DNA of 64,000 bases from an uncultured Phycisphaeraceae bacterium (GTDB lineage Bacteria; Planctomycetota; Phycisphaerae; Phycisphaerales; Phycisphaeraceae), in contig CAZFZS010000001.1 of the NCBI GenBank assembly GCA_964523485.1, positions 148,466 through 212,465 of the forward strand. The letters are read 5' to 3'. The translations under genes and the position numbers were made by a program. The notes under the pieces were generated by a model. The model searched no databases. It saw only the letters and a list, made by a program, of their open reading frames with translations, and was not told the DNA's origin. Shown here piece by piece: positions 34,092 through 57,628 of this stretch. Numbering within the stretch: position 1 is the first letter of the stretch; every line of letters begins with the position of its first letter.

Positions 34092-35093
34092 ATGAACGAA
34101 CCGCTATTACCAATCGCCCTTTTCGTCCTCACGCTGCTCGCCATCGCGGGCAGTGTGCTGGCCGTGCGTCGGCTGCGGGCGGGGGGGACATCCGGAGATT
34201 CGCAAAGCCTCATCACCGGCTTGGATCAGCAAAGCCATACGGCAACACAGGACGGGCTTGTCCTGCTGAACATGCTCGTGGGCATCATCCTCATGGTCGC
34301 CGCCGGGCTCATCGGCAGCCGATGGATCGAGGCGTATCGGTTCGGCCAAACCTGGTCGCCCGTCACCGCGCACGTCGATGGCTTGCTGCTCATCGCCACG
34401 CTCTGGTCCGCGACGCTGCTCTACCTTCAAAGCCGACCGCGGATGCTGGGGATCAGCGCGTTCGGCCTGCCCATGCTCGCCCTGATCCTCGCTTGGGGCG
34501 TTTGCGCCTCGCTGTGGACCTACCGGCCATTCGATATCCACACCGTTTGGCGATCGGTACACCTGGCCGGGGTCTACCTCGGAACGCTAGGCGCCGCCTT
34601 GGCCGCGATCTCCGGGGCGATGTTTCTATATGCTCAAAAACGGCTGAAGAACAAATCCGACGTTGGTCAAGCGGCCCGCGATCGGCGGGTGCGGATGCCC
34701 AGCCTCGAATCACTTGAACGATTCATCCAGCAGGGCTCGATCATCAGCTTTGCCCTGCTGAGCCTGGGGATCGCGACCGGCGTAGTCATCCTTCTTGAAG
34801 AACAGACCATGGCAAAGGGCTGGTGGTACACGCCCAAGGTCATCCTCGCAGCGGTCTGCTGGGGCGTTTTTGCGGTACTGATCAACATCCGGCAGGCGTC
34901 GAGTTTCCGCGGCCGACGGGCGGCTTGGCTAGCGATCGGCGGGTTCGTGCTGCTGCTGGTGGTCTACGGGTTGGTGACGGCGGGGCCGAGTGATGCTCAA
35001 GAGCGATCCGGGGATTCGCAAAGCCTCATCCCCGGCCCGGAGAAATCGATCGTTCAGGACGTTGTCACTTCCGGGGGTGGGCCATGCGGCTGA
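34092..35093 (+). CDS. CcsA/HemX-family membrane protein
   Basis: About 8 TM helices, conserved His (SVHLAG), PSLESLE, degenerate WWD-like region (WWYTPKVI); immediately upstream of hemA. Confidence 0.8.
   Translation: MNEPLLPIALFVLTLLAIAGSVLAVRRLRAGGTSGDSQSLITGLDQQSHTATQDGLVLLNMLVGIILMVAAGLIGSRWIEAYRFGQTWSPVTAHVDGLLLIATLWSATLLYLQSRPRMLGISAFGLPMLALILAWGVCASLWTYRPFDIHTVWRSVHLAGVYLGTLGAALAAISGAMFLYAQKRLKNKSDVGQAARDRRVRMPSLESLERFIQQGSIISFALLSLGIATGVVILLEEQTMAKGWWYTPKVILAAVCWGVFAVLINIRQASSFRGRRAAWLAIGGFVLLLVVYGLVTAGPSDAQERSGDSQSLIPGPEKSIVQDVVTSGGGPCG
34189..34222 (+). repeat. Family-B 34-bp REP-like element (intragenic, hemX/ccsA)
   Basis: CATCCGGAGATTCGCAAAGCCTCATCACCGGCTT. Confidence 0.85.
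35005..35038 (+). repeat. Family-B 34-bp REP-like element (intragenic, hemX/ccsA C-terminus)
   Basis: GATCCGGGGATTCGCAAAGCCTCATCCCCGGCCC. Confidence 0.9.
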
Positions 35094-36547
35094 TGCTGCT
35101 GGGCATTAACCACCGCACCGCGCCCGTCGAGGTGCGCGAGCGACTCGCATTAGGCGGCGAGCAGTTGGGCCCGACGCTGTCCGCCTGGTGTGAACACTTT
35201 GCCGGGGCCGAGGCGGTGATGCTGAGCACCTGCAACCGCACGGAGCTTTACATCGCCCGACCCCACGAGGCCGAGCCGAGCATCGAACAGGTCCGGGCTT
35301 TCCTCGCGCAGCAGACCGATGCCTCGATCGAGGCGTTGACCGCCGCGTCGGTCCACCGCGAGCAAGGCCCGGCGGTTCATCACCTGCTGCGGGTCACCGC
35401 CGGGTTGGACGCGATGGCCGTCGGCGAATCGCAGGTGCTCGGCCAAGTCAAACGCGCTTATGAATCCGCCCAGCAGGCAGGCACAGCCGGCCCGGTGCTC
35501 AACCGACTCTTCCAACAAGCCCTCGCCGAGGCGAAGCAGGCCCGCCAAGCCAGCGGCATCGACATGCTGCGACATTCCATCAGCTCGATGGCCGTCGACT
35601 TCGCCAGCGATGTGTTCGACTCGTTCGAGGACAAGACGGTCGTCGGCATCGGGGCGGGCGAAATCACAAAGGCGACGCTGCGGCGGATGCTCGAACTGCG
35701 GCCCGGCAAGATGTGGGTGGTCAACCGATCGGCCGACCGGGGGTTGGCGTTGGCGCGGGGGTTGGGGCTGGTGGGCTCGAGTGACGGGGCGCGACCCGCG
35801 GATTCGCAGAGCCTCATCCGCGACTTGGCGAACATTTCCGGAGGCGCGAGGCCTTGGGAGGCGATGGAAGAAGTCCTGGTCGAGGCGGATGTGGTGTTGA
35901 CCGCGACCGGGGCGAGTGAGCCGATCGTCACCGAGGCGGGGTTTGCGAAGTTGATCAAGAGGCGTCGGAATCGGCCGATCTTCATGATCGACATGGCTGT
36001 GCCGCGCGACATCGAGCCAAGCGTCGGTACGCTGCCGAACGTGTATCTCTACAACATCGATGATTTGCAGCAGGCGCTGGACCAATCGCCGCACCGCCGC
36101 GAGTCGATCCAAGCTTGCGAAGACCGGGTGCGGGATGCGGCCGACCGTTGCCTGGGTGCGTTGCAACATCAGGACCTGGGCGTGCTGGTGCGGCAACTGC
36201 GTGGCAAGCTGCTCGCCATCGGTGAGCAGGAACGGGCCCGGACCCGCAAGAAAATGTCCGCCATGCTGCCCGAGTACGTCAGTGCCGACACAGGCGAGGC
36301 GGTCGACCATCGTGACCAAGTCGATGCACTGGGCGCGTTGCTCGATGAGCACACGCACCGGCTGATCAACAAGGTGCTGCACCTGCCGCTGCGTCAGCTC
36401 GGCCCGGAGCAGAAGGATGCCCCGCTGGGTTTCTATGCGGCCGCCTTGCGGAAGCTATTCGATCTCGATGGCATGTCGGGTGAGAGCGGGGAAAAATCAG
36501 CCGCGGATGAAGAGCGCGACGCCGACGTCGGATCGAGTCATGATTAG
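35084..36547 (+). CDS. hemA: Glutamyl-tRNA reductase
   Basis: LGINHRTAPVEVRE, LSTCNRTELY, GLDAMAVGESQVLGQVK, GAGE, VNRS, DMAVPRDIE, LYNIDDL. Confidence 0.98.
   Translation: MRLMLLGINHRTAPVEVRERLALGGEQLGPTLSAWCEHFAGAEAVMLSTCNRTELYIARPHEAEPSIEQVRAFLAQQTDASIEALTAASVHREQGPAVHHLLRVTAGLDAMAVGESQVLGQVKRAYESAQQAGTAGPVLNRLFQQALAEAKQARQASGIDMLRHSISSMAVDFASDVFDSFEDKTVVGIGAGEITKATLRRMLELRPGKMWVVNRSADRGLALARGLGLVGSSDGARPADSQSLIRDLANISGGARPWEAMEEVLVEADVVLTATGASEPIVTEAGFAKLIKRRRNRPIFMIDMAVPRDIEPSVGTLPNVYLYNIDDLQQALDQSPHRRESIQACEDRVRDAADRCLGALQHQDLGVLVRQLRGKLLAIGEQERARTRKKMSAMLPEYVSADTGEAVDHRDQVDALGALLDEHTHRLINKVLHLPLRQLGPEQKDAPLGFYAAALRKLFDLDGMSGESGEKSAADEERDADVGSSHD
35793..35826 (+). repeat. Family-B 34-bp REP-like element (intragenic, hemA)
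   Basis: GACCCGCGGATTCGCAGAGCCTCATCCGCGACTT. Confidence 0.9.
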
Positions 36548-38780
36548 GTCGGCCGACCCACCCCTGGCTGAACCTGAACCGCAAGCGACAACCCAGTCGC
36601 CCAGCAACGCTTGGCCGATGCTTCTGAGCATCATCGTTTCCGCGGCCTTGGCCTGGGTGCTGCTGAGCGGGTTCGGATTGCAGCCCTGGCTTTCGGCACT
36701 GGGCATCGTGGCCGATGCGCTGCCGAGTTTGATCATGCTCTGGGCGGCCGCGGCGGGGATGGGTCAACTCGTTTTTCGACTTGGCTTAATGAGTCGTGAC
36801 GCGATGCCTTGGTCGATCCGGTGTGCGATCGGTCTTATGGCGCTCGGGCTGCTGCTTTACACGTTGGCGTGGACCGTCGCGCTTCACCGCTCGATGGTAA
36901 TGAGCGTCTTGGCGGTCGGTTGGATCATGTTGATCGCGGAAGGTTTCCGAAAGTTGCGCAGGGCCGGGCGGGGTGAGTCGCACCCCACGCTGAGGTCGAT
37001 CCGACAATCGCTCTCGTCAATGAATGCTTTGTGGTTCTCACTTCCGGGGGCGGCGTTGTTGGTGATGGCGGCGTGCTGTCCGCCGGGCACGATTTGGCGG
37101 GTCGAGGCGATGGGCTATGACGTGATGAGCTATCACCTGCAGGTCCCACGCGAGTGGGTCGCGGCAGGTCGGATGCTCGGGCTGGAGCACAACGTCTACA
37201 GCTTTCTTCCGGGCATGATGGAACTGTTTTACGCGGTGCTGATCACGCTGCGTGGCGGCGAGGCAATCGGATCGTTGTATGCGTGTCAGTTGTTTTCGGT
37301 GAGTTTGATGGGGTTGGCCGCGGCGGGGGTAGGGTGTGCGGTGCTTGCCGTGATGCGGCGTGACACTTCCGGGGGTGATCCGCGGATTCGCAAAGCCTCA
37401 TCCGCGGCTTCGGGGGTGATTGGAGGAATAGTTGCAGGGGTTTTTCTATGTGTGCCTTGGGTGTTGGTCACCGGGTCGATGGCGTATCACGAGGCGGGGA
37501 TGCTGGCCTTCGGCATCGCGGCGTTGACGGTGGCGTTGCAGGGTGGCTTGGGTGTGAGACACGCGGCGGTGGTGGGGCTGCTGTTGGGTATGGCGACGCT
37601 GTGTAAACCAACGGCGGGGTTCATGCTCGGCCTGCCGATCGGCGTACTCATACTGCTGCTGGCTTGGCGAAATGCACCATCAGAAAAACGCGTCGGCGTC
37701 ACCTTACGGGTCGCGGCGGTTTGTCTCGCAGTCGGTCTGCTCACGCTCAGCCCGTACCTCGCCCGCAACGCGGCGGCAACGGGCAACCCGTTGTTCCCCT
37801 TCGCGCTGGACCTGCTGGGGCAGGGCCATTGGTCGGACGCCACGGCCGAGCGTTGGCAACTCGCCCACGGCGAGGCCCCCCGGAAGTTGGCCGCGGTGAC
37901 TGCCATCTGGCAGCAAGTCTTAGGCAACACCGGCTACGGCGCAATCGGCGGATCGCCCACCCCGGCCGAGTCCTACAACATCGCGCGCTTCGCCAACCAA
38001 GGCGGCCTGCCTGTGCTGTGGATCACCGTCGCCATCGCATCAGGGCTAGGCCTATTCTCCACGCCCGTATTCAAGCATCAGAAACTTCTGGTACTCGCGA
38101 TGCTCGGTTGGATCGCCTGGCAGGTGTTGTGCTGGTTAGGCCTGACCCATCGCCAGTCGCGGTTCATGATCACGCTGCTGCCGCCCGCGGTCGTGCTGCT
38201 TGGCATCGGATTGGGGACGCTTGCTCATTTCGGCAGACCCGCGAAGGCGGTTGCGCTCGGTTGCGGGGGGCTGGTGATCGTCGCCTTGCTTTGGGTCAGC
38301 TTCTTGACCCTGCAAAATCAGACGACGCCTTTACGTGATGCAGCCGGCAACCCGCTCGGCCCGGCCCCGTTGGGGTTGATCGTCGATGCCCTGCCTACAC
38401 CCCATGGCACGGGTCTGTTGCCCGAACCGATCGTCAACCAACGGCCAATCGGCAGCCCGGTGCTCATCGTCGCGGACAACAGCTCGCTGCTTTACGCCGA
38501 AGCGCCGTTTCACTATGCGAGTGCGTTTGACGAACCTTGGTTGGCCGATGCGATTCAGCGGGCCGAGCAGACCAATACGCCTAGCCGATCGCTCGCCATC
38601 GAACTTCGTGAGCGGGGCATCCGATACGTCTACGTCGGCTATGGCGAACTGAGCCGCCTGCACGCTACCTATGGATTTGACCCCCGCATCACCGAAGCCA
38701 GCCTGCGTACCCTGACCGTCGATTGGCCCCGCGAGTTCGAAAGCCGCGTCGCGGGCTTCTACCGCGTCCCGCAAAACTGA
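36540..38780 (+). CDS. Multi-pass membrane protein, GT-C (ArnT/PMT-like) glycosyltransferase candidate
   Basis: More than 12 TM segments, YDVMSYHLQVP motif, CKPTA, RNAAATGNPLFPF, QSRF; ATG overlaps the hemA stop. Confidence 0.7.
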   Translation: MIRSADPPLAEPEPQATTQSPSNAWPMLLSIIVSAALAWVLLSGFGLQPWLSALGIVADALPSLIMLWAAAAGMGQLVFRLGLMSRDAMPWSIRCAIGLMALGLLLYTLAWTVALHRSMVMSVLAVGWIMLIAEGFRKLRRAGRGESHPTLRSIRQSLSSMNALWFSLPGAALLVMAACCPPGTIWRVEAMGYDVMSYHLQVPREWVAAGRMLGLEHNVYSFLPGMMELFYAVLITLRGGEAIGSLYACQLFSVSLMGLAAAGVGCAVLAVMRRDTSGGDPRIRKASSAASGVIGGIVAGVFLCVPWVLVTGSMAYHEAGMLAFGIAALTVALQGGLGVRHAAVVGLLLGMATLCKPTAGFMLGLPIGVLILLLAWRNAPSEKRVGVTLRVAAVCLAVGLLTLSPYLARNAAATGNPLFPFALDLLGQGHWSDATAERWQLAHGEAPRKLAAVTAIWQQVLGNTGYGAIGGSPTPAESYNIARFANQGGLPVLWITVAIASGLGLFSTPVFKHQKLLVLAMLGWIAWQVLCWLGLTHRQSRFMITLLPPAVVLLGIGLGTLAHFGRPAKAVALGCGGLVIVALLWVSFLTLQNQTTPLRDAAGNPLGPAPLGLIVDALPTPHGTGLLPEPIVNQRPIGSPVLIVADNSSLLYAEAPFHYASAFDEPWLADAIQRAEQTNTPSRSLAIELRERGIRYVYVGYGELSRLHATYGFDPRITEASLRTLTVDWPREFESRVAGFYRVPQN
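37377..37410 (+). repeat. Family-B 34-bp REP-like element (intragenic, GT-C gene)
   Basis: GATCCGCGGATTCGCAAAGCCTCATCCGCGGCTT. Confidence 0.92.
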
Positions 38781-38792
38781 TTGACTGCAGCA

Positions 38793-39830
38793 TCAACCTT
38801 CCGATGTGATCTTCACCAGTTTTTCCAGCACCTGCTTCGCTGCACCGGTATCGATTGCTTCGCTGGCCAGGGTCAGGCCGTGGTCGATTGAGTCGGCGGC
38901 GTCGGCGATGAGCAGGGCGGCGGCGGCGTTGAGCAGCGTGATATCACGGGCCGGTCCTTGCTCGCCGTCGAGCACCCGCTGCACGATGGCGGCCGAGTCG
39001 CTGGGCGTCTCGATCGCGACCGAGTCGGGCACCGCGAAGGGCAGACCTAATGCCGCGGGGTCGAGTGGGTAGGTTTTCACCATGCCGTTGTGAAGTTCCC
39101 AGGCGTTGGCCGGGCCGAACGTCGTCAGTTCCCCGAGGCTTCGGCCGTCCGGCAGGACGCTATGCACCAGCATCACCCGCTCGGCATCGAGACGGATCAG
39201 GGCATCGACCATCAGCTGGGCGACCTCTGGCGAAGGCACGCCGATGAGCTGCCGCGTCGCCCGGGCAGGGTTGGTCAGCGGGCCGACGAGATTGAAAATC
39301 GTGCGGAACCCCAGGGCCGCGCGGATCGGCCCGGCATGTTTCATGGCGGGATGATGCTGCGGTGCAAAACAAAAGCACATGCCCGCTTCATCAAGACATT
39401 GAGTCAAGACCTCCGGCGGGGCGGTCAGCGTCACGCCAAGCTGTTCGAGCACATTGGATGAGCCGCTCTTAGAGGTGACCGAGCGATTGCCATGCTTGGC
39501 CACCGCGATGCCCAGCGGCCGACCCGCCGCGGACGCGACGATCGCCGCCGTAGTCGAAATATTGAAAAAGTTCGACCCCGTCCCCCCCGCCCCGCAGGTG
39601 TCGATCACCGTCAGCCCATCGGGCACGTCCACCGGCACGCTGAGCTTGCGCATCACCCGGGCGGCACCGACCAGTTCGTCCGCCACCGCGCCGCGCTGGG
39701 CGATCAGGGCGAGCATCGCGCCGGCCTGGGCGGGGTCGAGTTCGCCGGCCATCAACAACCCGAATGCCTGCTCCGCCTGCGACTCGGAAAACGGCGACCC
39801 ATCGACCAGATGCGAGAGGAGTTCTTTCAT
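38793..39830 (-). CDS. trpD: Anthranilate phosphoribosyltransferase
   Basis: DTCGAGGTG..FNIST, KHGNRSVTSKSGS, HHPAMKH, RTIFNLVGPLTNP, LNAAAAL. Confidence 0.98.
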   Translation of the reverse strand: MKELLSHLVDGSPFSESQAEQAFGLLMAGELDPAQAGAMLALIAQRGAVADELVGAARVMRKLSVPVDVPDGLTVIDTCGAGGTGSNFFNISTTAAIVASAAGRPLGIAVAKHGNRSVTSKSGSSNVLEQLGVTLTAPPEVLTQCLDEAGMCFCFAPQHHPAMKHAGPIRAALGFRTIFNLVGPLTNPARATRQLIGVPSPEVAQLMVDALIRLDAERVMLVHSVLPDGRSLGELTTFGPANAWELHNGMVKTYPLDPAALGLPFAVPDSVAIETPSDSAAIVQRVLDGEQGPARDITLLNAAAALLIADAADSIDHGLTLASEAIDTGAAKQVLEKLVKITSEG

Positions 39831-39847
39831 ACAGAAAGTCTACCCAA

Positions 39848-39873
39848 AGCCGACGGATCGCCATCCGTCGGCT
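39848..39873. repeat. Family-A palindrome
   Basis: AGCCGACGGAT-CGCC-ATCCGTCGGCT between the small membrane gene and trpD. Confidence 0.88.
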
Positions 39874-39892
39874 GTACGAAGTCAAAACAGAT

Positions 39893-40132
39893 TCAAAGCA
39901 CCCAAACCATCATCCACAACGCCACGGCCGCGGCCCCCATGAAAATCACGATCTGCAGTGTCAGCTTCACAACCTCACGCGGCAACTGGCTCAGGTCCCG
40001 CAGCTTGATCGTTTTGTACGCCACCGCGATCAGCACGATCAACGGCAGAAACAACAGCAGCCAACCCACCGTCCCGGTGTATGGGATCGGATCGATGAAT
40101 GGGCGATAAGCGACGTGTAGCAACGGAAGCAT
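39893..40132 (-). CDS. Small two-TM hypothetical membrane protein
   Basis: RPFIDPIP..WLLLFLPLIVLIAVAYKTIK; start 40132 or 40150. Confidence 0.7.
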   Translation of the reverse strand: MLPLLHVAYRPFIDPIPYTGTVGWLLLFLPLIVLIAVAYKTIKLRDLSQLPREVVKLTLQIVIFMGAAAVALWMMVWVL

Positions 40133-40225
40133 GGGGAGCGATTGGACCATTGCGACGCTTGAGCAAGGACAGGACAACAGCAAATCAGGAAAACGATAAG
40201 TCAGCAATTGGAGCTTTGCGCTGAA

Positions 40226-40834
40226 TCATGATGGATTCGTTTCCCGCTTCTCTGATTTTCTATTTTTCTTCTCCGTGTCTCCGTGTCTCGGTGTTCTCTG
40301 TGGTTGATTTCGCGGCTCGCGGTAAAGCACGTCGATCATAGCCAGGAGGTTCAGCAGCCCGGCCATGCAGGTAAACAGCGTGCCCTGCTCGTGGGCTCGG
40401 CCCAGCGCTGGTTCAAAGGGCGGCTCATCGACGGGGTCAAAGGATCGGCCGGCCATGAGCTGGTCGGCGACCATCTGATCGCGGTACCAGTCGGCAACGG
40501 TCGACGGGGCGATGAGCATCTGGCCGAGGAACCAGGCCGGCTGATTATTGCGGTCAATTACGGAGATCCCACCGACGAATAATCCGATGAGCCAGAGCGT
40601 GCCGATGCTGATCGCGAGGATGACGGCTCGTTTCTGCTGGCCCAGTAAAAAATGACCCAGCCCCGGCAACACCCATCCCGCGACGGCGGCCGCGAGATGC
40701 CAGGAGGACGGCGAGCCCTCGGGCGAAGCGGTTTCCTTGACGCTATCCGCGTCAGCTTCGGGGGCGGCTTCCGCGGTGAATTCCGGGGGCGGCTGGGTTG
40801 CTTGTTCGGGTTCGGGGTGGGGTGATGGTGTCAC
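40226..40834 (-). CDS. DUF6677-like membrane protein
   Basis: AGWVLPGLGHFLLG...AGLLNLLAMID pattern; acidic Pro-rich N-terminus; 3' end runs into a 9-bp repeat (40271-40303). Confidence 0.65.
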   Translation of the reverse strand: MTPSPHPEPEQATQPPPEFTAEAAPEADADSVKETASPEGSPSSWHLAAAVAGWVLPGLGHFLLGQQKRAVILAISIGTLWLIGLFVGGISVIDRNNQPAWFLGQMLIAPSTVADWYRDQMVADQLMAGRSFDPVDEPPFEPALGRAHEQGTLFTCMAGLLNLLAMIDVLYREPRNQPQRTPRHGDTEKKNRKSEKRETNPS

Positions 40835-40930
40835 GGATCAGCGGTTCGGGCATGGGTTTGTCGGACTATAACGATCGCGCGGGTTATGCTGGGGGGAAAG
40901 AAAAAGTTTGCAAACCGCTCGAATCGACCA

Positions 40931-40958
40931 TTGACAAAATCCATCGGACCGATAGTTT
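40931..40958 (+). promoter_or_regulatory. Putative sigma70 promoter
   Basis: Perfect TTGACA, 16-bp spacer, TAGTTT; upstream of the acidic/basic gene pair. Confidence 0.55.
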
Positions 40959-41049
40959 AAGCGCCAGTTGGCTCAAGCCCGGGAGGCGTGGCGGCCGACA
41001 ACGGTATTTGTTGCTTTACACCAGCGGTTTTATTGGGAGGTTACGACCC

Positions 41050-41313
41050 ATGTTGGCATTCACACCCTTTCGGCAGACCCCCGGATTTCTCCTGGATTCT
41101 GAAGAAGACCCGCGTTGGCCGATGCTGGTCGACGACGACGGCGAATTTGAGGACGACGACTTTCTGGACGATGAAGAGGATGAGGACGACCTCTACGACG
41201 ACGACGATGAAGAAGACGAGGACGACGACTTCTTCGACGACGACGATGATGAAGAGGACGACCTGTTCGACGACGACGAGGACGAAGACCTCTTCGACGA
41301 CGATGACGATTGA
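41050..41313 (+). CDS. Small polyacidic protein (87 aa; 48 of the last 60 residues D/E)
   Basis: GGAGG SD before ATG 41050; synonymous variation (GAC/GAT/GAA/GAG) through the acidic tract supports coding. Confidence 0.75.
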   Translation: MLAFTPFRQTPGFLLDSEEDPRWPMLVDDDGEFEDDDFLDDEEDEDDLYDDDDEEDEDDDFFDDDDDEEDDLFDDDEDEDLFDDDDD

Positions 41314-41372
41314 TCCGGCCTGACGCTTCGTGTCGTCGGCCGACCCCGGCAGGACGACTACGGAGCAGATTC

Positions 41373-41756
41373 ATGGCCCAGCCCGACAAGCAAGAACAAA
41401 CCCCCCGCGGCAACGACCGCCGACAGAACGTGGTCGACACCCGCCCGGCCGGCACCGGCTTGGAGCGTCGCCGCGGCCCGGGACGCCGCCGCAGCGACTT
41501 CATCAAAGCCGCAGAGGAAGGCGAGATGACCGGCGAGCAGTTCCTGTTCATCAAGGCCATCGACGCATACAAGCGTGTCAACGATCGGCCGTTCCCGACC
41601 TGGACCGAGGTGCTCGAAGTCTTGCGCAAGCTCGGCTATCGCAAAACGATGCCGACCGAATTGCAGATTCCCTCGGCCGAGGACTGGACCGAATCCGCCA
41701 ACGCCCCGGCCTTCCCGCCGCCGGCCGAGGACCTGCCCGAGCAGGAAGCGGCGTGA
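41373..41756 (+). CDS. Hypothetical protein with Arg-rich DRR/ERRR motif and a small helical domain
   Basis: GGAG SD; NDRR..LERRRGPGRRRSD, EMTGEQF..AIDAYKRVNDRPFPTWTEVLEV..LGYRK. Confidence 0.8.
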   Translation: MAQPDKQEQTPRGNDRRQNVVDTRPAGTGLERRRGPGRRRSDFIKAAEEGEMTGEQFLFIKAIDAYKRVNDRPFPTWTEVLEVLRKLGYRKTMPTELQIPSAEDWTESANAPAFPPPAEDLPEQEAA

Positions 41757-41759
41757 GGG

Positions 41760-41865: not shown

Positions 41866-41885
41866 TTTCCCCTAAACTGTCGTCC

Positions 41886-44647: not shown

Positions 44648-44677
44648 AAAGCCGAGGGATGGCCATCCCTCGGCTTT
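44648..44677. repeat. Family-A palindrome
   Basis: AAAGCCGAGGGAT-GGCC-ATCCCTCGGCTTT (perfect). Confidence 0.92.
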
Positions 44678-47233: not shown

Positions 47234-47261
47234 AAGCCGGGGGATGGCCATCCCCCGGCTT
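47234..47261. repeat. Family-A palindrome between convergent genes
   Basis: AAGCCGGGGGAT-GGCC-ATCCCCCGGCTT (perfect). Confidence 0.92.
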
Positions 47262-50072: not shown

Positions 50073-50117
50073 GGCATACACCCCATTGAAATCCCTTAGT
50101 TTTTGTGGATGATGCTT

Positions 50118-50310: not shown

Positions 50311-50425
50311 GGAATCGTTTCTCAACACTGATGCAACCCCTCCCGTGCAATAGGCTTACTATGGACAGCGAATCTTACGCGAATGTGCCAGCTTTCCGTG
50401 TGATTGCTGATCCGAGCTGCTGACC

Positions 50426-51088
50426 ATGGCCGAATCCAAATCTCACTCGCACGATTCAGCGATGCACCGCGAACTCGCGGCGTCCTGTCCGCAGTGGCCC
50501 GCGGCGGGGGAATTGCTGACTGCTGTCGTGGATCGTCTCGAGTCGATGGTGAACGCCGATGGCGTACTGCTGACTTGTGGCAACGGCGGCAGCGCGGCCG
50601 ATGCCTCGCACATCGTGGCCGAACTGGTCAAATGTTTTCGGGTCAAGCGGCCGCTGGATGAAAAGCAACGCAGGCAATTCGAAGATAACGCCCCCGACGC
50701 TGGCGGCGACACCGCGGATCGCTTAGAGCAAGGCATCCGTGCGGTCAGTCTGACCTGTTCGACGCCGATTCTTACCGCCATCGCCAACGACTGCGGGGCC
50801 GATCTGGTTTTTGCTCAGCAGGTCTGGGCGTTGGCTCGACCCAATGACGTTGTGCTGGGGCTGAGCACCTCCGGCAACTCAGAAAACGTGCTCCAGGCAT
50901 TCCGGGCCGCCAAGGTCCGCGGCTGCACGACCATCGGTTTGTGCGGCGAACAAAGCTGCAAGATGGACGGCCTATGCGACCTGCTGGTCAAAGCGCCCTC
51001 ATCAAAAACTTTCCGCATCCAGGAATACCACCTTGCGTTTTATCACGCGATGTGTGCATTGCTGGAGCAGCGGGTTTTCCAAAAATAA
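50426..51088 (+). CDS. gmhA: D-sedoheptulose 7-phosphate isomerase (SIS domain)
   Basis: CGNGGSAADASHIVAEL, TAIAND, FAQQV, LSTSGNSENV, RIQEYH. Confidence 0.93.
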   Translation: MAESKSHSHDSAMHRELAASCPQWPAAGELLTAVVDRLESMVNADGVLLTCGNGGSAADASHIVAELVKCFRVKRPLDEKQRRQFEDNAPDAGGDTADRLEQGIRAVSLTCSTPILTAIANDCGADLVFAQQVWALARPNDVVLGLSTSGNSENVLQAFRAAKVRGCTTIGLCGEQSCKMDGLCDLLVKAPSSKTFRIQEYHLAFYHAMCALLEQRVFQK

Positions 51089-51118
51089 AAAGCCGACGGA
51101 TGGCCATCCGTCGGCTTT
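51089..51118. repeat. Family-A palindrome between gmhA and the tRNA-Glu 3' end
   Basis: AAAGCCGACGGAT-GGCC-ATCCGTCGGCTTT (perfect). Confidence 0.92.
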
Positions 51119-51128
51119 GATCAGGCAA

Positions 51129-51201
51129 TACCCCCTACGAGATTTGAACTCGTGTCGCCGCCGTGAGAGGGCGGTGTCCTGGGCCACTAGACGAAGGGGG
51201 C
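51129..51201 (-). tRNA. tRNA-Glu (anticodon CUC)
   Basis: GCCCCCTTCGTCTAGTGGCCCAGGACACCGCCCTCTCACGGCGGCGACACGAGTTCAAATCTCGTAGGGGGTA; full cloverleaf, 73 nt, CCA not encoded. Confidence 0.97.
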
Positions 51202-51262
51202 GTCAAGGCTCGGCCGATCGGGTGAGCCGGGTCGGCAAGCGTAGAAGCCCGCCGCAACCGCG

Positions 51263-52255
51263 TCAAGCCTGCCGACGGAGCTTCAGCGGATCGATGTTTA
51301 AGCGTCCCAGCTCGCCACGGACCTCCTGCCAGAACCGCTTGGCGTCGCTGCCGTAGCCCTTGGTCGGCGCGACCTCAGGCAGTCGTTCGGCAAACCAGGC
51401 CTGAAAGCGGTGCATCAGCAGCTCGCGGGTGTACTTGGCCAACATCGATGCCAGGGCGGTGGGCATGTGGTCCGACTCGGCCTGCGTTTGAAAATGCACC
51501 AGCATCCGTCGGCCCGCGGAACCGTTCTGCCAAATCTCGTAGCTCGAATGAGCCGGCGTCTCCCGCACGATATCGATGTTGCAATCGGCAAAGGTATCGG
51601 CCAGCAGCCTTCGGTAATGCGACCGCCCGGATTGACGGTCGACGACGACGGTGGGGCGGTGCTGGCTGTGGTGTTGCCAGATGTGAAGCAGGTGGCCGGC
51701 CACGCGGGTGAAGCTCACCGCCGCCTTCGAGCGGGTGGTCTGCACCTCTTCATTAAAGCGGTCCTCGAAGACAACCTGGACGCCCAGGTGTTCAACCTGC
51801 ACGCCGATGCGGTGAGCGGTGGTGGCCAGCAGGCCACGGGCGATGGCGAGTTGGCCGGGGTCCGCCGCATCAGGCAGTGCTTGCCAGGGCCGATCCGCAG
51901 TCGCGGCATACCAAGGCAGAACCGCGTCGCCGCGATGCCCCTCAGCCCCCATCGCGTCGAGCCATCGCCCGACATCTTCAGGATGATGGTCCGCCATCGC
52001 GGCGAAGGCCAGGCAGCCGGTTTCGAGATGGGCGATCCCCGCGGCCTTGGTCGTCAGCTTCTTGCTGTCGTTAACAACAACTCGGCCCTTGCGGCCGGTC
52101 AGCGTCTTGCACACCGCTTTGTTCAGCCGCCGCCACAGGTCCGGCGGGTCGGCCCCGGCCTCAAGCTTGGGGATCGACAGCACGCAGCAACCCACCGTCA
52201 GCGGCCCGAAGAACGGCCCATACCCCGCTTCATCGATACCGGCATAAATAAACAT
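51263..52255 (-). CDS. rnhB: Ribonuclease HII-like protein (divergent, with insertions)
   Basis: AGIDEAGYGP, NDSKK, VDRQSGR, ALASMLAKYTRE, KGYG; ATG at 52255. Confidence 0.82.
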   Translation of the reverse strand: MFIYAGIDEAGYGPFFGPLTVGCCVLSIPKLEAGADPPDLWRRLNKAVCKTLTGRKGRVVVNDSKKLTTKAAGIAHLETGCLAFAAMADHHPEDVGRWLDAMGAEGHRGDAVLPWYAATADRPWQALPDAADPGQLAIARGLLATTAHRIGVQVEHLGVQVVFEDRFNEEVQTTRSKAAVSFTRVAGHLLHIWQHHSQHRPTVVVDRQSGRSHYRRLLADTFADCNIDIVRETPAHSSYEIWQNGSAGRRMLVHFQTQAESDHMPTALASMLAKYTRELLMHRFQAWFAERLPEVAPTKGYGSDAKRFWQEVRGELGRLNIDPLKLRRQA

Positions 52256-52476
52256 GACAAGCCCGAACTTTAACACAGCCCCTCCGGCAGCAATCATTAT
52301 TTAAGACCGCACTGAAATGTTTACCCAGATTAACTTCGAGGAAATTCTCTCGTTTTTAGCCGTCCAGCCGCGTAGGATCAGGGCAGGAGTTCGACGCGAA
52401 TTGCGGATTTTGCGGCCGTGCCGAACAGCATGTCACGGATGGTTGAAGATCGAAAATTTTGTGTGAGGTAGATGTT

Positions 52477-53349
52477 ATGACTCAGATGACAAGTAAACTG
52501 GCACTGGCAGGTACAGCGGGTTTCGCAGTGGCGTTCGCGGCAGCGGTGCTGACCACGATGCCCGCTGCGGGGCAGATGACCTATTCCGCGGCTGGCGTGT
52601 CGGTCGGCGAGTCGACCGCCTCTACGTCTGACATCCGCGAACGAGCTTTGCGGGCCTATCGATCCGACGGGGCAATCTCCATCGGCGTCGTCCGAGACCT
52701 TCGGCTGACCCCCGCCTTCGACCCCCGCACAGACTTCAGCCGATTCAACCGTTTCGACCGGTCGGACCGCTGGATCGCCCGCGAAGTGATTCTCGGCCGC
52801 ATCGACCCGCTGCGCAGCCGTGATCAATCCGTCGGCATCGTCCGGGCCTACCGCAACATTCCCGGCGTCGATGTAAGCCAACCCCGCCCCGGCGTGCTCG
52901 TATTCCGCAACGCCAATGCGGAGGATGAAACGCAGGAAAACACCGGCGAGCAATCGCAAAATCAATCGCTACCCAACACAGCAAACTCGAACGAGCCGGT
53001 ACAGATCGTGGCGGTGCAAAGCCGCTCCGTTGAACTCGACAGCGACCCGTGGGTGTTGCTCAACCAAGGCCTGTATCGCGATGCCCGGGAACAGTTCAAC
53101 GCGATGCAGGATGCGGATAGCGTCGAGTCGATGACCGGCCGAGCCCTGGCTGCGGCCTTGGCGGGCGACCTCGCTGGAGCTAGCGAGTTGATGCCCGATT
53201 CACCGACTTTGCCCGACAGCGTCACGCTCGCAGAAGCGACACGCACCCGGATCAATCAGGTCAAAAACCTGCTATTCCAAGGCGATGACCAAATGCAGGA
53301 AGCACTGCAAGCGATCCTCGACGCGACCACACCGCCAACGGCAAGTTGA
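52477..53349 (+). CDS. Secreted hypothetical protein
   Basis: Signal peptide (ALAGTAGFAVAFAAAVL..AAG); TPR-like helical C-terminal part. Confidence 0.7.
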   Translation: MTQMTSKLALAGTAGFAVAFAAAVLTTMPAAGQMTYSAAGVSVGESTASTSDIRERALRAYRSDGAISIGVVRDLRLTPAFDPRTDFSRFNRFDRSDRWIAREVILGRIDPLRSRDQSVGIVRAYRNIPGVDVSQPRPGVLVFRNANAEDETQENTGEQSQNQSLPNTANSNEPVQIVAVQSRSVELDSDPWVLLNQGLYRDAREQFNAMQDADSVESMTGRALAAALAGDLAGASELMPDSPTLPDSVTLAEATRTRINQVKNLLFQGDDQMQEALQAILDATTPPTAS

Positions 53350-53379
53350 AGTCATTCTCCGAACCTATCCCCGTCCCCG

Positions 53380-53406
53380 AAGCCCACGGATTCAATCCGT
53401 GGGCTT
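53380..53406. repeat. Family-A palindrome overlapping the GT9 stop codon
   Basis: AAGCCCACGGAT-TCA-ATCCGTGGGCTT. Confidence 0.9.
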
Positions 53407-54435
53407 TATTGTCAGTTGTTCTAAGACCGCAGCCCTGACCCGCTCCATCGACAGCTTCCGGATCAGCGTGTCATCGTCGCGATGTCGGCGGTACTGATAG
53501 GTTTGTCCTTGCGCTTCCGAGGGGCGGAGTACGAGGTGGCGGGTGTCGCGGGGTGACCAGTCGTATGGACCAACCGCGGCGGGATCGGTCGGGCCGAACA
53601 AGCTGACCGTCGGCCGATCCAATCCCACCGCCAGATGCAGCGGGGCCGAATCGTTGCAGACCACCAAATCCGCCCCCGCGATCACGGCCATCGATTGCCC
53701 GACAGTGGTGCGTGGGAAAACGATTTTGCCCTCGCAATGATGAACTACTTCGCTGAAGCTTTGCTCCACCCAATCCATCTCGTGCGGCCCGGCGACCACG
53801 ATAACCCGCTGGGTCAGCTCTTCATCGATCAGCCAACCCGCCAGCTCCGCGTACCGCTCGATTGGCCAACATTTACAACCCCACTGTGCTGTTGGTGCCA
53901 ACACGACACAGCCTTGTTGTTGCGAAGCCCATTGGCTTTTCGCATCAGCCCACCACATTTCCGCGTCCGGCGGCACGAATAGCCGCAAATCATCCTCGGC
54001 GTTTAACCCATCTGCCTGTAACAGCCCGAGCATCTTCCTGACGGTGTGCATCTCCTCCACCCGATACCGACGGTTATACGCCAGCCAGGCGCCCTCCCGC
54101 GCATCGCGGAAGCCGACCCTGGCCCCGGCCCCCGTTGCCAGCGTGAACAGCCCCGATCGTGCGAGGCCTTGCAAGTCGTAGACCCGTTCGTAGCGGTGTT
54201 TCCGAAGCTCCATGGCGAGCTTGATCGACTCACCAAGATTTCCGCGGTCAAACGGGATCGCTCGATCCAATGCCGGGTGATGGGCAACCGCATCCACGAA
54301 CGGCCGACTCACCAGCCAATCGATGCGGTGCTGGGGATAGGCTTGACGCAGCGTGACCAGGCAGCCGACGGTCCGTGCGACGTCGCCCAGGGCGGTGGGG
54401 CGGATCATCAGGATGGCAGTGCGGTCATCGGGCAT
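53392..54435 (-). CDS. GT9 glycosyltransferase (WaaC/WaaF-like heptosyltransferase)
   Basis: IRPTALGDVA, YDLQGLARS, KCWP, CNDSAPLHLA, LFGPT. Confidence 0.92.
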   Translation of the reverse strand: MPDDRTAILMIRPTALGDVARTVGCLVTLRQAYPQHRIDWLVSRPFVDAVAHHPALDRAIPFDRGNLGESIKLAMELRKHRYERVYDLQGLARSGLFTLATGAGARVGFRDAREGAWLAYNRRYRVEEMHTVRKMLGLLQADGLNAEDDLRLFVPPDAEMWWADAKSQWASQQQGCVVLAPTAQWGCKCWPIERYAELAGWLIDEELTQRVIVVAGPHEMDWVEQSFSEVVHHCEGKIVFPRTTVGQSMAVIAGADLVVCNDSAPLHLAVGLDRPTVSLFGPTDPAAVGPYDWSPRDTRHLVLRPSEAQGQTYQYRRHRDDDTLIRKLSMERVRAAVLEQLTIKPTD

Positions 54436-54534
54436 GCGTCAGGCTTCGCGGTCGGCTTTGCGTTACATTAACCGTTTGGGCCACGCTTTCGCCCGATCAT
54501 CCCTCGAACTCACGCCTCATTCCGGCGACCGACT

Positions 54535-55290
54535 ATGATCACCGCTGTCATCTCCGATATCCACGGCAACGTCGACGCACTTAACACCGTGCTGAACGAT
54601 ATCGATCAGCGTGGCATCGAGCGGGTCGTCTGCCTGGGCGATGTCATCGGCTATGGGCCGAACCCGACCGACTGCCTCGACCTGGTAATGGACCGCTGTG
54701 AATTTTCGATGATGGGCAACCACGACTTCGCGGTGCTCTACGAGCCGACGAGTTTCAACACCTCCGCCGAGCAGGCCGCGTTCTGGACCCGCCGCCAGCT
54801 CGAAGAGGAATCCGACGCCGACAAACGCCGCAAGCGGTGGGAATACCTGGGTAACCTGCTGGTTCGTCGTTGGCATGAAGGTGCGCTGTGGGTCCACGCC
54901 TCGCCGCGCCGGCCGATCAACGAATACATCTTTCCTGATGATGTGATTGCCGCCCCAAACAAGATGCATGCGATTTTCGATCGGATTGAGAGCCGGGCGT
55001 TCTGCGGGCATACTCATGTGGCGGGCGTCTTCACCGATGAGCCGGACTTCTATCCGCCGCAGGACTTGGGCGGGGCGTACACCTTCCGCGACAGCGAGAA
55101 GTGCATCATCAACCCCGGCAGCGTCGGCCAACCCCGCGACCGCGACCCCCGCGCCAGCTACGCCATCCTGCAGGATGACAAAGTCGAGTTCATCCGCCTC
55201 GAATATGACATCCAAGCAGTGATCGACAAGATCGATCAGATCGAAGAGCTGTCCGATTTCCTCGGCCAGCGTCTGCTTGACGGGCGGTGA
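54535..55290 (+). CDS. Metallophosphoesterase (calcineurin-like)
   Basis: SDIHGN, LGDVIGYGP, GNHD, CGHTH, INPGSVGQPRD. Confidence 0.93.
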   Translation: MITAVISDIHGNVDALNTVLNDIDQRGIERVVCLGDVIGYGPNPTDCLDLVMDRCEFSMMGNHDFAVLYEPTSFNTSAEQAAFWTRRQLEEESDADKRRKRWEYLGNLLVRRWHEGALWVHASPRRPINEYIFPDDVIAAPNKMHAIFDRIESRAFCGHTHVAGVFTDEPDFYPPQDLGGAYTFRDSEKCIINPGSVGQPRDRDPRASYAILQDDKVEFIRLEYDIQAVIDKIDQIEELSDFLGQRLLDGR

Positions 55291-55298
55291 CGTTCATC

Positions 55299-55328
55299 AA
55301 AGCCGAGGGATTGCAATCCCTCGGCTTT
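55299..55328. repeat. Family-A palindrome between convergent genes
   Basis: AAAGCCGAGGGAT-TGCA-ATCCCTCGGCTTT (perfect). Confidence 0.92.
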
Positions 55329-55335
55329 ACATGGA

Positions 55336-55683
55336 TCAAAATGACGCCAGCGCGTCGTCGATGTCGTCGAAGACGCCGAAGATGTCGTCGAGCTTTGTCA
55401 CTTTGAACAAAAACGAGACATTGTCGGCACAGTTGCCCAGCGCGATCTTGCCACGCATCGGCTCGACTTCGCGGAGCAACTCGACCAGCGATCCGATACA
55501 GGCCGAGGCGAGAAAGTCGATCTGCTTGAGGTCGAACAGGAAGTTCGTTGCCTGGTCGTAGCGCATCTTGTCACAGCAGGCCGCGATGACTTCCTGGAAG
55601 TCGGCGTGCGAGGCTTCGGGCCCGGGGAAGCGGACGGTGACGGTCGCGCCGTTCTGTTCGATTTCGGTTTCTTGGCTGGCCAT
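55336..55683 (-). CDS. STAS-domain anti-sigma factor antagonist
   Basis: FLFDLKQIDFLASACIG, LFKVTKLD; ATG at 55683. Confidence 0.88.
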   Translation of the reverse strand: MASQETEIEQNGATVTVRFPGPEASHADFQEVIAACCDKMRYDQATNFLFDLKQIDFLASACIGSLVELLREVEPMRGKIALGNCADNVSFLFKVTKLDDIFGVFDDIDDALASF

Positions 55684-55818
55684 GATGCAAAAACTCCGCC
55701 GACCGAAAGGCCGGTAACTTCTATATCGAAACAATAGCCCCCCCGGCTTCACCGCTCGGCGTGATTCCTATCGTGAATCTTGCTTACCCAACCGGCATAA
55801 CCCTTCAAGACGGCCCGA

Positions 55819-56157
55819 TCAGGCCTCGCTGGGCTTGCCTTCTGCCAACTCGAACAATGCATCCAGCCTGGCCAATCGCAGCAGAAACGCGACATTCTCC
55901 TGGCAGTTCAGTAGCACGATCGAGCCACCCTGCTTTTTGACATCCTGATAGAACATCAAGAGCAAAGCGAGGCAGGCGGAGGGCAGGAACTCAACCTTGT
56001 CGAACTCAAGAACGAAACGCTTGGCATCGGTTTCGGTGAGTCGCTGCTTGAGGCTGCCGACCAGCTCGCGCAACTCGTCGGTTTCGACCTCGCTGTGATG
56101 AATGTCGACGATGACGCGTTGGCCGTCCTGCTGGATGTCGGCAAGGGGGGTGCTCAT
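55819..56157 (-). CDS. STAS-domain anti-sigma factor antagonist
   Basis: VLEFDKVEFLPSACL, VAFLLRLARLD. Confidence 0.88.
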   Translation of the reverse strand: MSTPLADIQQDGQRVIVDIHHSEVETDELRELVGSLKQRLTETDAKRFVLEFDKVEFLPSACLALLLMFYQDVKKQGGSIVLLNCQENVAFLLRLARLDALFELAEGKPSEA

Positions 56158-56293
56158 AGGAACCCAGAGTTTAGCGTGGCGAGAAAGAAACGTCCCGGCG
56201 AAAACATCCTACATCAGCGATCCCAGCCGTGACCCTTCAAGCCGTAGATATGGCTAGGCGAATCCACAGAACCGCATGGGCTTATCTCGACCC

Positions 56294-56327
56294 GATCCGA
56301 CGATTCGCAAAGCCTAATCGTCGGCTT
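56294..56327 (+). repeat. Family-B 34-bp REP-like element (downstream of ygfZ)
   Basis: GATCCGACGATTCGCAAAGCCTAATCGTCGGCTT. Confidence 0.9.
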
Positions 56328-56337
56328 GAGTTTTTGT

Positions 56338-57570
56338 TTAATCGGCTAGCTCCCGCAGCTGCTCCACCCGCGCTTCGATCAACTGACCCTCGGCCGGCAC
56401 AAGCACCGTTGTGCCCGGCTTGTGTCGGCCCCACCGCATCATCGCAATCGCCACCGCTTTCTGCCCACGCAAGGGCGACGCCGCCGAGCTGGTCACCCCG
56501 CCGATGACCTTCTGCTTGTCGCCCGGCTCGAGCACCTGCGCCCCCGCGACCGGCAGGCCGTCACCGTCCAGCTCCAGCCGAACCAGCAGCTTCTTGGGAT
56601 GACCCAGGCTTTTCATCCGCGCGACGACCTCCTGGCCGAGGTAGCAGCCCTTGGTGAAGCTCACCGCTTCGTCGAGCAGACCGGCCTCGGCGGGCAGCGA
56701 GTCCGTGCCGAAGTCGATGTGATGCATCGGTACGCCCTGCTCAACCCGGACCGTGTTGAACGCCGACCAGCCGATCGGCCGACCCCGCAATGACGCCCGC
56801 CGCCGCTCAGCGAACTCCGCGTCGACCTCCGCATCCGGTTCGTAACCCGCCATGTCGAGCAGGGCTCGATGTACCGCCACCGCATCAGCGCTCGGAACAA
56901 TCAGCCGAACACCCAGCACCGTCCCCAAGTCCCAGCGGTAGGCGGTCGCCTGTACCCGCTCTGCATCGCTGTTTCCCGAAGCAGCGACGGCGATGCCCAC
57001 CACCTGATGATTACCCCGTTCACCCAACGGTGGCGAAGCCTGCTCGGCCTGCGACACCTTGTCCATCAGCCGCAGCGCCGCCGGGCCGAGCAGCCAGAAC
57101 ACGGATCGTTGATCCAGAATTTCAGTCGTCACATCCTCGGTGAACAGCCTGGCATCGATCAGCTCGCGTAGCCAGTCCACGTCGAACAGGTCCGTCTCCA
57201 GCCAGGTCGATGCGTCGCCATGATGAATGATCAGGTCCGCCGCGATGTGGCCCTTTTCGTTGAGCTGCAACCCGCGGACGGTCTGCCCGCCCGTCAGCTT
57301 GTTGATCTCCTGCGTACACAGGCGGTGCAGGTAGTCCTTCACATCGGTCCCGGTCAACTGCAGGATCGTTCGCTGCGGCAGGTGCAGGATGCCGACGTGC
57401 CTTCGGATCGCGGCATACTCCGCCTCGAAGCTGCCCTCCCCAGTGGCATGGCCAAACGACTCGGCCATCTCGATCCGCCGACCATCGCCCAGCTCCGGCC
57501 CCCACGCCATCATCTCCGCCCCGAGACTTTCGAGGTGCCGGGTCATCTCGCTTTGATGCAAACTGTCCAT
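56338..57570 (-). CDS. ygfZ: YgfZ/GcvT-family folate-binding Fe-S cluster repair protein
   Basis: LTGTDVKDYLHRL, SFTKGCYLGQEVVAR signature. Confidence 0.93.
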   Translation of the reverse strand: MDSLHQSEMTRHLESLGAEMMAWGPELGDGRRIEMAESFGHATGEGSFEAEYAAIRRHVGILHLPQRTILQLTGTDVKDYLHRLCTQEINKLTGGQTVRGLQLNEKGHIAADLIIHHGDASTWLETDLFDVDWLRELIDARLFTEDVTTEILDQRSVFWLLGPAALRLMDKVSQAEQASPPLGERGNHQVVGIAVAASGNSDAERVQATAYRWDLGTVLGVRLIVPSADAVAVHRALLDMAGYEPDAEVDAEFAERRRASLRGRPIGWSAFNTVRVEQGVPMHHIDFGTDSLPAEAGLLDEAVSFTKGCYLGQEVVARMKSLGHPKKLLVRLELDGDGLPVAGAQVLEPGDKQKVIGGVTSSAASPLRGQKAVAIAMMRWGRHKPGTTVLVPAEGQLIEARVEQLRELAD

Positions 57571-57594
57571 CCCGCCAGTCTATCCCGCCCAACC

Positions 57595-57628
57595 AAGCCG
57601 CGGATGAGGCTCTGTGAATCCGCGGATC
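57595..57628 (-). repeat. Family-B 34-bp REP-like element (upstream of ygfZ, inverted)
   Basis: Reverse complement GATCCGCGGATTCACAGAGCCTCATCCGCGGCTT, 32/34 identical to the 37377 copy. Confidence 0.92.

Follow-up and report, generated by a model that had tools for sequence, protein, structure and literature searches.

The closest described counterparts of the element studied here are the repetitive extragenic palindromic (REP) sequences of Enterobacteria and Pseudomonas and their REP-associated tyrosine transposases (RAYTs), e.g. E. coli TnpA-REP (4ER8) and the REP doublets, or REPINs, of Pseudomonas fluorescens. REPs are also known from inside genes: Di Nocera, De Gregorio and Rocco (2013; PMC3733652) described intragenic REPs of the GTAG/CGTC type, e.g. 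in Opitutus terrae, among them REPs in the tRNA-synthetase genes of Xanthomonas oryzae and other species, and their material included the PVC superphylum. The same paper treats the Rickettsia palindromic elements (RPE), palindromic repeats inserted in frame that add peptide segments to open reading frames (ORFs) which are probably functional. In Planctomycetes and Acidobacteria, Quentin et al. (2018; PMC6006769) reported class 3 TnpA-Y1 transposases flanked by atypical, highly repeated hairpins. Here we analyse a window, i.e. the whole stretch of 64,000 nt taken from contig CAZFZS010000001.1 (positions 148,466 to 212,465) of an uncultured Phycisphaeraceae bacterium, and in it a repeated hairpin called family B. 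With a probability of about 75%, family B is a REP-type element, a non-autonomous DNA hairpin of 34-40 bp that belongs to a REP-RAYT system of the Phycisphaerae (Planctomycetota).

The window was searched with a 34-mer pattern allowing up to three mismatches, and 100 dinucleotide shuffles served as control. Exactly six matches were found, with the consensus and at the positions given in the preliminary description of this DNA (34189, 35005, 35793, 37377 and 56294 on the plus strand and 57595 on the minus strand; 0-3 mismatches each). The shuffled windows gave no match, none being expected by chance. A covariance model, built from 49 distinct family members and run unfiltered over the whole window, gave the six copies 47-52 bits and everything else at most 21.5 bits. 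The next tier (14-21 bits) consists of the hairpins of a second repeat, family A, which has its stem design in common with family B. The same scan brought out a decayed seventh copy on the minus strand (14.7 bits; 25/34 identity to the reverse-strand consensus). The copies and the gene block that hosts four of them are the following.

34092-38780, plus strand: host gene block with four copies and with every frame intact; it encodes a CcsA-like cytochrome c assembly protein, glutamyl-tRNA reductase (HemA) and a large membrane protein.
34189-34222, plus strand: copy 1, stem CCGGA/ACCGG with one A.A mismatch, in the CcsA-like protein (ORF 34092-35093), within its variable N-terminal linker; peptide ..TSGDSQSLITG..
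35005-35038, plus strand: copy 2, stem CCGGG/CCCGG, within a 31-aa C-terminal extension of the CcsA-like protein.
35793-35826, plus strand: copy 3, in hemA (35084-36547), in a variable loop of the NADPH-binding domain; peptide ..RPADSQSLIRDL..
37377-37410, plus strand: copy 4, a perfect match to the pattern, in the membrane protein gene (36540/36618-38780) and in a different frame, peptide DPRIRKASSAAS; an 11-mer considered below lies 1 nt upstream.
56239-56272, minus strand: copy 7, decayed, with a broken stem; it forms a REPIN-like inverted doublet with copy 5 (21-nt spacer).
56294-56327, plus strand: copy 5, stem CCGAC/GTCGG, extragenic, 10 nt beyond the stop of a GCV_T-like gene (56338-57570, minus strand).
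57595-57628, minus strand: copy 6, extragenic, in the spacer that separates the divergent GCV_T-like (minus strand) and pgk (57708-58913, plus strand) genes.

As described before, four of the six copies are inside ORFs, all of them intact, and the variable dinucleotides of the two arms covary: CG/CG in three copies (the outer pair being broken in one), GG/CC, AC/GT, and GA/AC with one A.A mismatch. Outside a block of 34-36 nt the flanks of the window copies do not align with each other. In single-stranded DNA every window copy is predicted to fold into an 8-bp stem with a 12-nt loop (-3.8 to -9.4 kcal/mol); the corresponding RNA folds range from -13.5 to -16.4 kcal/mol.

The inner GAT/ATC pairs of the stem are fixed, and its outer five pairs vary by lineage and, in this genome, by copy. 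The 12-nt loop, TCGCARAGCCTC, is conserved across genera. The feet (5' GAT(C/A)CC and 3' GGCTTG(G)) are conserved too, and they do not pair with each other. An 18-nt core, GATTCGCARAGCCTCATC, is invariant across the 49 distinct hairpins. Among these hairpins 95% of the stem cells are paired, versus 20-46% when the partner is slid, and five of the eight stem pairs have changed on both sides; the set had been pre-filtered for stem complementarity (at least 4/5), which inflates the percentage paired and not the double changes. The earlier view of a structured REP-like hairpin with a covarying stem and a conserved loop is supported. Information content drops to background 8-12 nt beyond the core, and the unit therefore measures about 38-40 nt. 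As read off the sequence, only one of the element's six reading frames contains a stop codon.

In one lineage an invariant C.A mismatch of the written strand is a G.T wobble on the AAGCC strand, and there the AAGCC strand folds at -16.4 kcal/mol versus -9.1 kcal/mol for its complement. The better fold of the strand with the G.T wobble points to the AAGCC strand as the relevant one. An alternative AAGCC/GGCTT pairing, put forward in the preliminary description, turned out not to be conserved: in the register tested, full complementarity is limited to a few copies of this window's lineage, the Ga0163150 lineage fits only with a shift of one nucleotide, and the largest lineage is complementary at only 3/5 positions.

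The family extends far beyond the window. The 18-nt core (scanned as GATTCRCARAGCCTMATC) was looked for in one genome per species, 596 Gb in total; L-numbers (e.g. L044, L129) designate loci fetched for the analysis. The core is present in at least ten Phycisphaerae-type genomes, in each case with lineage-specific compensating stems (arms CCCAC/GTGGG, CCGGA/TCCGG, CCGAG/CTCGG, CCTGG/CCAGG and GGCC/GGCC). About half of the matches listed come from metagenome-assembled genomes (MAGs) of Phycisphaerae/Phycisphaerales (Bin_17, PDA_C_MAG.101, 5N602, Tepidisphaera, JB054, UBA5793 and others), and a MAG labelled Vicinamibacteraceae "PLA1" has the same repeat. In a metagenome scan, contigs of Ga0163150 carried dozens of copies of the form ATACCCCGAC-core-ATCGGGCTTGG, many of them as REPIN-like inverted doublets 40-60 bp apart with variable spacers of 17-30 nt. 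The copies are therefore not a local duplication limited to the six of the window, an outcome that had been envisaged at the start.

Matches outside the Phycisphaerae (Sorangium, Methanothrix, Bacteroidales and others) were set aside as chance or coding coincidences, because by our estimate about 100 or more matches to a degenerate 18-mer are expected in 596 Gb. Three Sorangium genomes (L015 3814, L055 2771, L067 3408) have the exact 18-mer and four extra complementary flanking bases; there it sits in a conserved ORF (..TRIDSQSLIDD..) and is probably a coincidence. As for "Vicinamibacteraceae bacterium PLA1" (L007, L009, L011, L044 and other WYBR01 contigs), it shares its hairpin consensus, and a RAYT of 72% identity, with Phycisphaerales PDA_C_MAG.101, and its taxonomic label looks doubtful.

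The copies are numerous and dispersed, with six (and one decayed) in 64 kb of this genome and dozens in the partial data of several Phycisphaerae genomes. Inverted doublets occur in the Ga0163150 organism and once, decayed, in the window (56239-56327), and their spacers are not conserved. In the relatives about 75-90% of the copies are extragenic by two crude coding criteria. The extragenic singles lie in 38 unidirectional, 11 convergent and 3 divergent spacers, which matches the pattern published for REPs (PMC3733652). Their orientation relative to transcription is not biased (18 sense, 20 antisense), which argues against a strand-specific RNA signal.

The preliminary description had suggested looking for a RAYT or HUH gene flanked by the element, and such a gene does exist in related genomes. 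The fetched loci were searched for ORFs bracketed by copies, then by tblastn for homologues. An ORF of 186-206 aa is bracketed by single copies or doublets in L044, L065, L129 and L138, and in L035 a homologue starts 47 nt past a copy located at the edge of the locus. The element-flanked gene is thus found in at least five related genomes, with 176-206 aa. In L161 (2030-2140) the homologue is flanked by a loop-related variant in which the GAGGCTTTGCGA loop is kept and the closing pairs differ. In L080, L049, L140 and L071 the homologues do not adjoin a copy.

The best NCBIfam match of the encoded protein is NF047646, REP_Tyr_transpos (REP-associated tyrosine transposase), and its best Pfam match is PF01797, Y1_Tnp. 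Among 97 homologues the tyrosine Y157 and the second HUH histidine, H100, are invariant and the first, H98, is nearly so; HUH motif and tyrosine are both in register with ISDra2 TnpA in a profile alignment against the PDB. An AlphaFold2 model reached a mean predicted local distance difference test (pLDDT) value of 91.8. Its 18 best Foldseek matches were Y1 transposases without exception, those of ISDra2, IS608 and a Sulfolobus IS200 among them, as well as 4ER8, the E. coli RAYT in complex with a REP hairpin. By motif, catalytic tyrosine and predicted fold the gene of the relatives is thus that of a Y1 HUH transposase. It has more than 2000 homologues; the named ones are from Planctomycetota, and many are labelled "REP element-mobilizing transposase RayT" by JGI. 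The family is characterised by the tyrosine motif YI[LA]xH and by a conserved N-terminal segment, WLPGDPRGFR..H..HSSGDY..PPP. Other homologues are flanked by hairpins with other loops and stems and related feet (L155 2940-3000 and 3545-3660; L158 2900-3000 and 3567-3626; L162 2935-3000 and 3541-3620); the feet AAGCC(C)...GGGAT(C/A/G) recur in L155 and L158.

These data are consistent with the following mechanism. A RAYT-type Y1 HUH transposase, specific for single strands and encoded at another place in the genome, would bind the hairpin folded in single-stranded DNA, recognising its feet and probably its loop too; by cutting and rejoining the DNA it would let copies spread in trans. The pairing of the stem would be kept because the enzyme requires a hairpin and because intrastrand template switching, an established route for the correction of quasi-palindromes, may act on family B as well. 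Most copies would land between genes, and in-frame landings in unconstrained segments would persist as peptide inserts.

Several observations weigh against a REP-RAYT system, besides the pre-filtering of the hairpin set already mentioned. No RAYT-like gene was detected within the 64-kb window by tblastn or with a profile run against its six-frame translation, and four RAYT homologues that were traced to their origin all came from other samples; the cognate RAYT that would mobilise family B is presumably encoded elsewhere in this genome. The scores of the candidate enzyme are low: 17-36 bits with NF047646, for a curated cut-off of 80, and 17.5-29.3 bits with PF01797, for a cut-off of 23 that only one of four proteins passes. 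Its YI[LA]xH motif differs from the YxxxNP and Y----Q motifs of the known classes (PMC6006769). Moreover, RAYTs 50-63% identical to that of L129 are accompanied by other loops, and those of L044 and L065, only 40% identical to it, share the loop of the window, so that the loop cannot simply be predicted from the similarity of the RAYTs. Four of the six window copies are intragenic, the opposite of "extragenic", so that the mostly extragenic location seen in the relatives fails locally. No empty-site allele that would define insertion boundaries and target was found, the nearest HemA homologue being only 64% identical. Finally, the likeness to the E. coli REP that the preliminary description had pointed out holds for the design of the hairpin and not for the tag: an unpaired GTAG (or CGTC) at the foot is absent, the feet being GAT(C/A)CC and GGCTTG(G), or ACGCA and GCGT(G/C) in the Bin_17 lineage. 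In this lineage GCGT pairs with ACGC; there is therefore no unpaired tag, and membership of the CGTC group was rejected.

Other element classes were considered and rejected. Rfam gave no relevant match, whether at gathering thresholds on the window or in E-value mode on five loci, and a hammerhead-like reading of GAUGAGGC..GAA was dropped by eye, the core motifs being incomplete. Family B is not an intrinsic transcription terminator (a GC-rich hairpin with a T-run) because no T-run follows its copies. It is not an IS200/IS605 insertion sequence either: the window copies are gene-free 34-nt hairpins, hairpins far outnumber Y1 genes, and no tnpB was found beside the Y1 genes seen. A miniature inverted-repeat transposable element (MITE; 70-300 bp, with terminal inverted repeats and a target-site duplication) does not fit a conservation that stops 8-12 nt from the core.

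In one genome alone, 5N602 (JASGKR010000001.1; L002, L004, L008, L014, L024, L042, L051, L071, L083 and L095), the core is embedded in a palindromic MITE-like element of 125-190 bp. This element ends in 30-nt terminal inverted repeats (GTCAGAGCCCGAAGCGTCAGCGAGGGAGGC) and contains the loop a second time, in inverted form (GAGGCTTTGCGAGT); an additional internal segment of about 60 nt is found in some of its copies.

The intragenic copies of the window were located in their proteins by alignment with orthologues from three relatives. Three of them read ..DSQSLI.. and the fourth ..IRKASS... The copy at 34189 is in an N-terminal linker that is not conserved. That at 35005 is in the 31-aa C-terminal extension, which is missing from the orthologues, whose stop overlaps the hemA start. 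The copy at 35793 falls in a hypervariable loop of HemA, and at 37377 the segment of the membrane protein exceeds the orthologues by 15-18 aa. In the AlphaFold model of HemA (overall pLDDT 88.5) the insert, residues 231-250, is at 61-62 and the flanking blocks are at 93-98. Algisphaera agarilytica has a HemA of 59% identity to this one, whose named close homologues come from Planctomycetota or Phycisphaeraceae; the window itself belongs to a 394-kb JGI metagenome contig (Ga0450804_2477403).

Comparable insertions are found in the relatives. In two species pheT carries a tandem pair of in-frame copies, at a site common to both and shortly before the first Pfam-matched domain. In argS a single in-frame copy, read in a frame other than that of DSQSLI, lies between two Pfam-matched domains, and in nadE an antisense copy does so. 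In-frame insertion into intact ORFs at sites that vary among orthologues, i.e. an RPE-like behaviour, is thus observed both in the window and in the relatives. Because five of the six frames are stop-free, in-frame copies can survive as peptide inserts of 11-30 aa in loops, linkers and termini. Most simply, the intragenic copies are the survivors of selection, only frame-keeping insertions in unconstrained segments having persisted. The best reading is that the host proteins tolerate them as passengers and do not use them as functional modules; the inserts would be translated and probably neutral.

Tandem arrays of the 5' arm and loop were also seen (L054 608-724, L068 1887-1972, L019 7344-7394, L089 731-900), with a period of 33-34 nt, or of 38 or 76 nt in L089. 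In L054 the array extends a 382-aa ORF in frame at its C-terminus, with 11-aa units in the same frame as DSQSLI.

Three other explanations have to be weighed against a REP-RAYT system, and one of them concerns the 11-mer ACTTCCGGGGG, which the preliminary description saw as a possible target of the hairpin. Insertion directed specifically at this 11-mer, as TTAC is the integration site of IS608, would make hairpin and 11-mer one system; we hold this to be very improbable. The 11-mer is the most frequent one of the window (nine exact copies, and 18 with at most one mismatch versus 1.4 expected). With at most one mismatch it is found within 40 nt of two of the six copies, 1 nt upstream of 37377 and 28 nt downstream of 35005, a co-location of P ~0.003-0.013 by random placement or circular shift. 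At copy 4 the 11-mer at 37365 abuts the element, and a near-repeat, CTTC-GGGGGTGAT, follows on the other side; taken as a target-site duplication, the flanking CTTC(C)GGGGGTGAT repeat would imply a unit of 41 nt, which the intact frame does not allow. The statement that every intragenic copy adjoins the 11-mer or a variant of it goes too far: it is true of 37377 and 35005 only, since the "variants" at 35834 and 34188 have 2 and 3 mismatches to the 11-mer. Distance and side are also inconsistent between the two sites, whereas Y1 transposases insert at a fixed position beside their target, and the two extragenic copies have no 11-mer nearby. In the ~830 kb sampled from other carrier genomes no exact 11-mer occurs, and one-mismatch sites are at background there, 0-1.9 per 64 kb versus 18 in the window. 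At 37040 the 11-mer encodes a PG dipeptide that is also present in the orthologues. The targeting proposal therefore finds little support. In a relative, L110, AATTCCGGGGG is present in the same HemA loop and the hairpin is absent; shared survival thus explains the co-location at least as well as targeting, both short motifs persisting only in unconstrained, permissive protein loops.

Family B could also be mainly a cis-element of the host, a structure of RNA or DNA whose loop would be recognised by a host protein (an mRNA 3' stabiliser, an attenuator, a gyrase/IHF-type site or a regulator of a haem operon), the RAYT-like gene being incidental or secondary. The 12-nt loop is indeed kept across genera despite the divergence of stems and RAYTs, the AAGCC strand with its invariant G.U/G.T wobble in one lineage folds much better than the complement, divergent (promoter) spacers are avoided, and four copies are clustered in a single haem-biosynthesis gene block. 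We nevertheless judge this explanation unlikely. The extragenic singles show no orientation bias (18 against 20), the contexts in relatives are unrelated (pheT, argS, nadE and many intergenic sites), neither a T-run nor an Rfam match was found, and RAYT-like genes are flanked so tightly and so repeatedly that an incidental association is difficult to accept. A host function would in any case be compatible with a RAYT-driven spread. That a peptide motif (GDSQSLI) or a repeat module is selected at the protein level, or that the copies merely reflect local duplication or gene conversion, is barely credible. The DSQSLI frame is shared by three of the four intragenic copies, and it is also used by pheT of the relatives and by the 11-aa tandem array at the ORF end in L054. 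But the frame is a different one in copy 4 and in argS, and in nadE the copy runs antisense; outside the window most copies, and within it two, are extragenic, and both orientations occur. The frame, strand and extragenic data already contradict this explanation; in addition, the compensatory changes in the stem fit a hairpin and not a peptide, and the presence of the family in many genomes speaks against a local event.

Sites of the 11-mer in the window are at 19435, 23681, 29700-29734, 35067, 37040, 37365 and 37877, in several reading frames and on both strands. The ORF 29201-29959 contains three tandem 12-nt units, and an extended form, ACTTCCGGGGGTGAT, is common to 23681 and 37365.

The hairpins of family A have the form AAGCC[CG]NNGGAT, a loop of 3-4 nt and ATCCNN[CG]GGCTT, with covarying NN pairs. 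The CGGCTT end was correctly described as common to both families; family A shares its AAGCCGNNGGAT arm with the reverse strand of family B, and its loop is of 4 nt rather than 12. Because they are located right after gene ends with A- and T-tracts, these hairpins look like bidirectional terminators. They are listed here with three other features of the window.

11358-11385, 13314-13340, 39847-39874, 44649-44676, 47234-47261, 51090-51117, 53380-53406 and 55300-55327: family A hairpins, mostly just past gene ends, with A- and T-tracts.
51129-51201, minus strand: tRNA gene (Rfam RF00005, 59 bits), adjoining a family A hairpin.
58919-59017: inverted repeat directly 3' of pgk, of lower G+C content, whose 47-nt arms are 81% complementary and 5 nt apart.
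41130-41303: imperfect GAC/GAG/GAA-rich repeats encoding a strongly acidic low-complexity segment.

If family B is mobilised as proposed, REP-RAYT biology extends to the Phycisphaerae, where it now has a definite repeat consensus and a candidate enzyme family of more than 2000 members, many of them unnamed or annotated as "hypothetical protein". The conserved loop and variable stems provide a clean set of substrates for the study of hairpin recognition by a divergent Y1 enzyme. In-frame copies in the genes of haem synthesis, tRNA synthetases and NAD synthetase are natural experiments on the insertion tolerance of essential enzymes. For annotation, the repeats account for odd extra segments and C-terminal extensions in the proteins of Phycisphaerae MAGs. 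A stronger claim can be formulated, namely a distinct Planctomycetota subclass of REP-RAYT systems whose transposase would read the 12-nt loop and not a GTAG-type tag, whose elements would routinely colonise stop-free coding frames and recurrently add peptides to essential enzymes (HemA, PheT, ArgRS, NadE), and for which the genome-specific 11-mer could be a preferred landing site. We regard it as rather unlikely.

Compared with the intragenic GTAG/CGTC REPs (PMC3733652), family B likewise lies in frame in genes of known proteins, including tRNA synthetases, as single or tandem inserts of ~10-30 aa; it differs in belonging to another sequence family with another tag, and in that a candidate cognate transposase has been identified in relatives. 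Like the RPEs it is palindromic, sits in frame within ORFs and adds peptide segments. Unlike them it is mostly extragenic and associated with a RAYT-like gene; RPE-1 is longer, and no sequence relation is apparent. With the class 3 TnpA-Y1 (PMC6006769) the enzymes have in common a size of ~178 aa, an NHVH-type HUH motif and the same phyla. The published Y----Q motif and CnGA foot were not seen, the enzymes having YI[LA]xH and the hairpins AAGCC/GGAT feet.

The REP/REPIN-RAYT systems of Enterobacteria and Pseudomonas resemble family B in most respects: a short imperfect palindrome in many copies, inverted doublets, scarcity in divergent spacers, and a small Y1 HUH gene that is flanked by the repeats and whose predicted fold matches 4ER8. 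Family B differs by the lack of a GTAG tag, its feet being GAT(C/A)CC and GGCTTG, and by a 12-nt loop that is conserved across genera. In the E. coli 4ER8 work, REP recognition reportedly rests on the stem and the tag. The Phycisphaerae RAYT is also very divergent (score below the NCBIfam cut-off, N-terminal segment, YI[LA]xH motif). The doublet spacers are variable, unlike those of classical REPINs, and the phylum is Planctomycetota.

The preliminary description had seen in these repeats the best candidate for an undescribed system. This cannot be maintained, since REP-RAYT systems, REPs inside genes and Planctomycetes Y1 transposases with atypical hairpins have all been published (PMC3733652, PMC6006769). 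Our literature search found no paper with the core sequence and none linking Phycisphaerae to REPs. Family B most probably belongs to a REP-RAYT system, and intragenic copies such as it has were known before from other REPs; it is somewhat unusual in the conservation of its loop across genera, its non-GTAG feet and the locally high share of in-frame intragenic copies.

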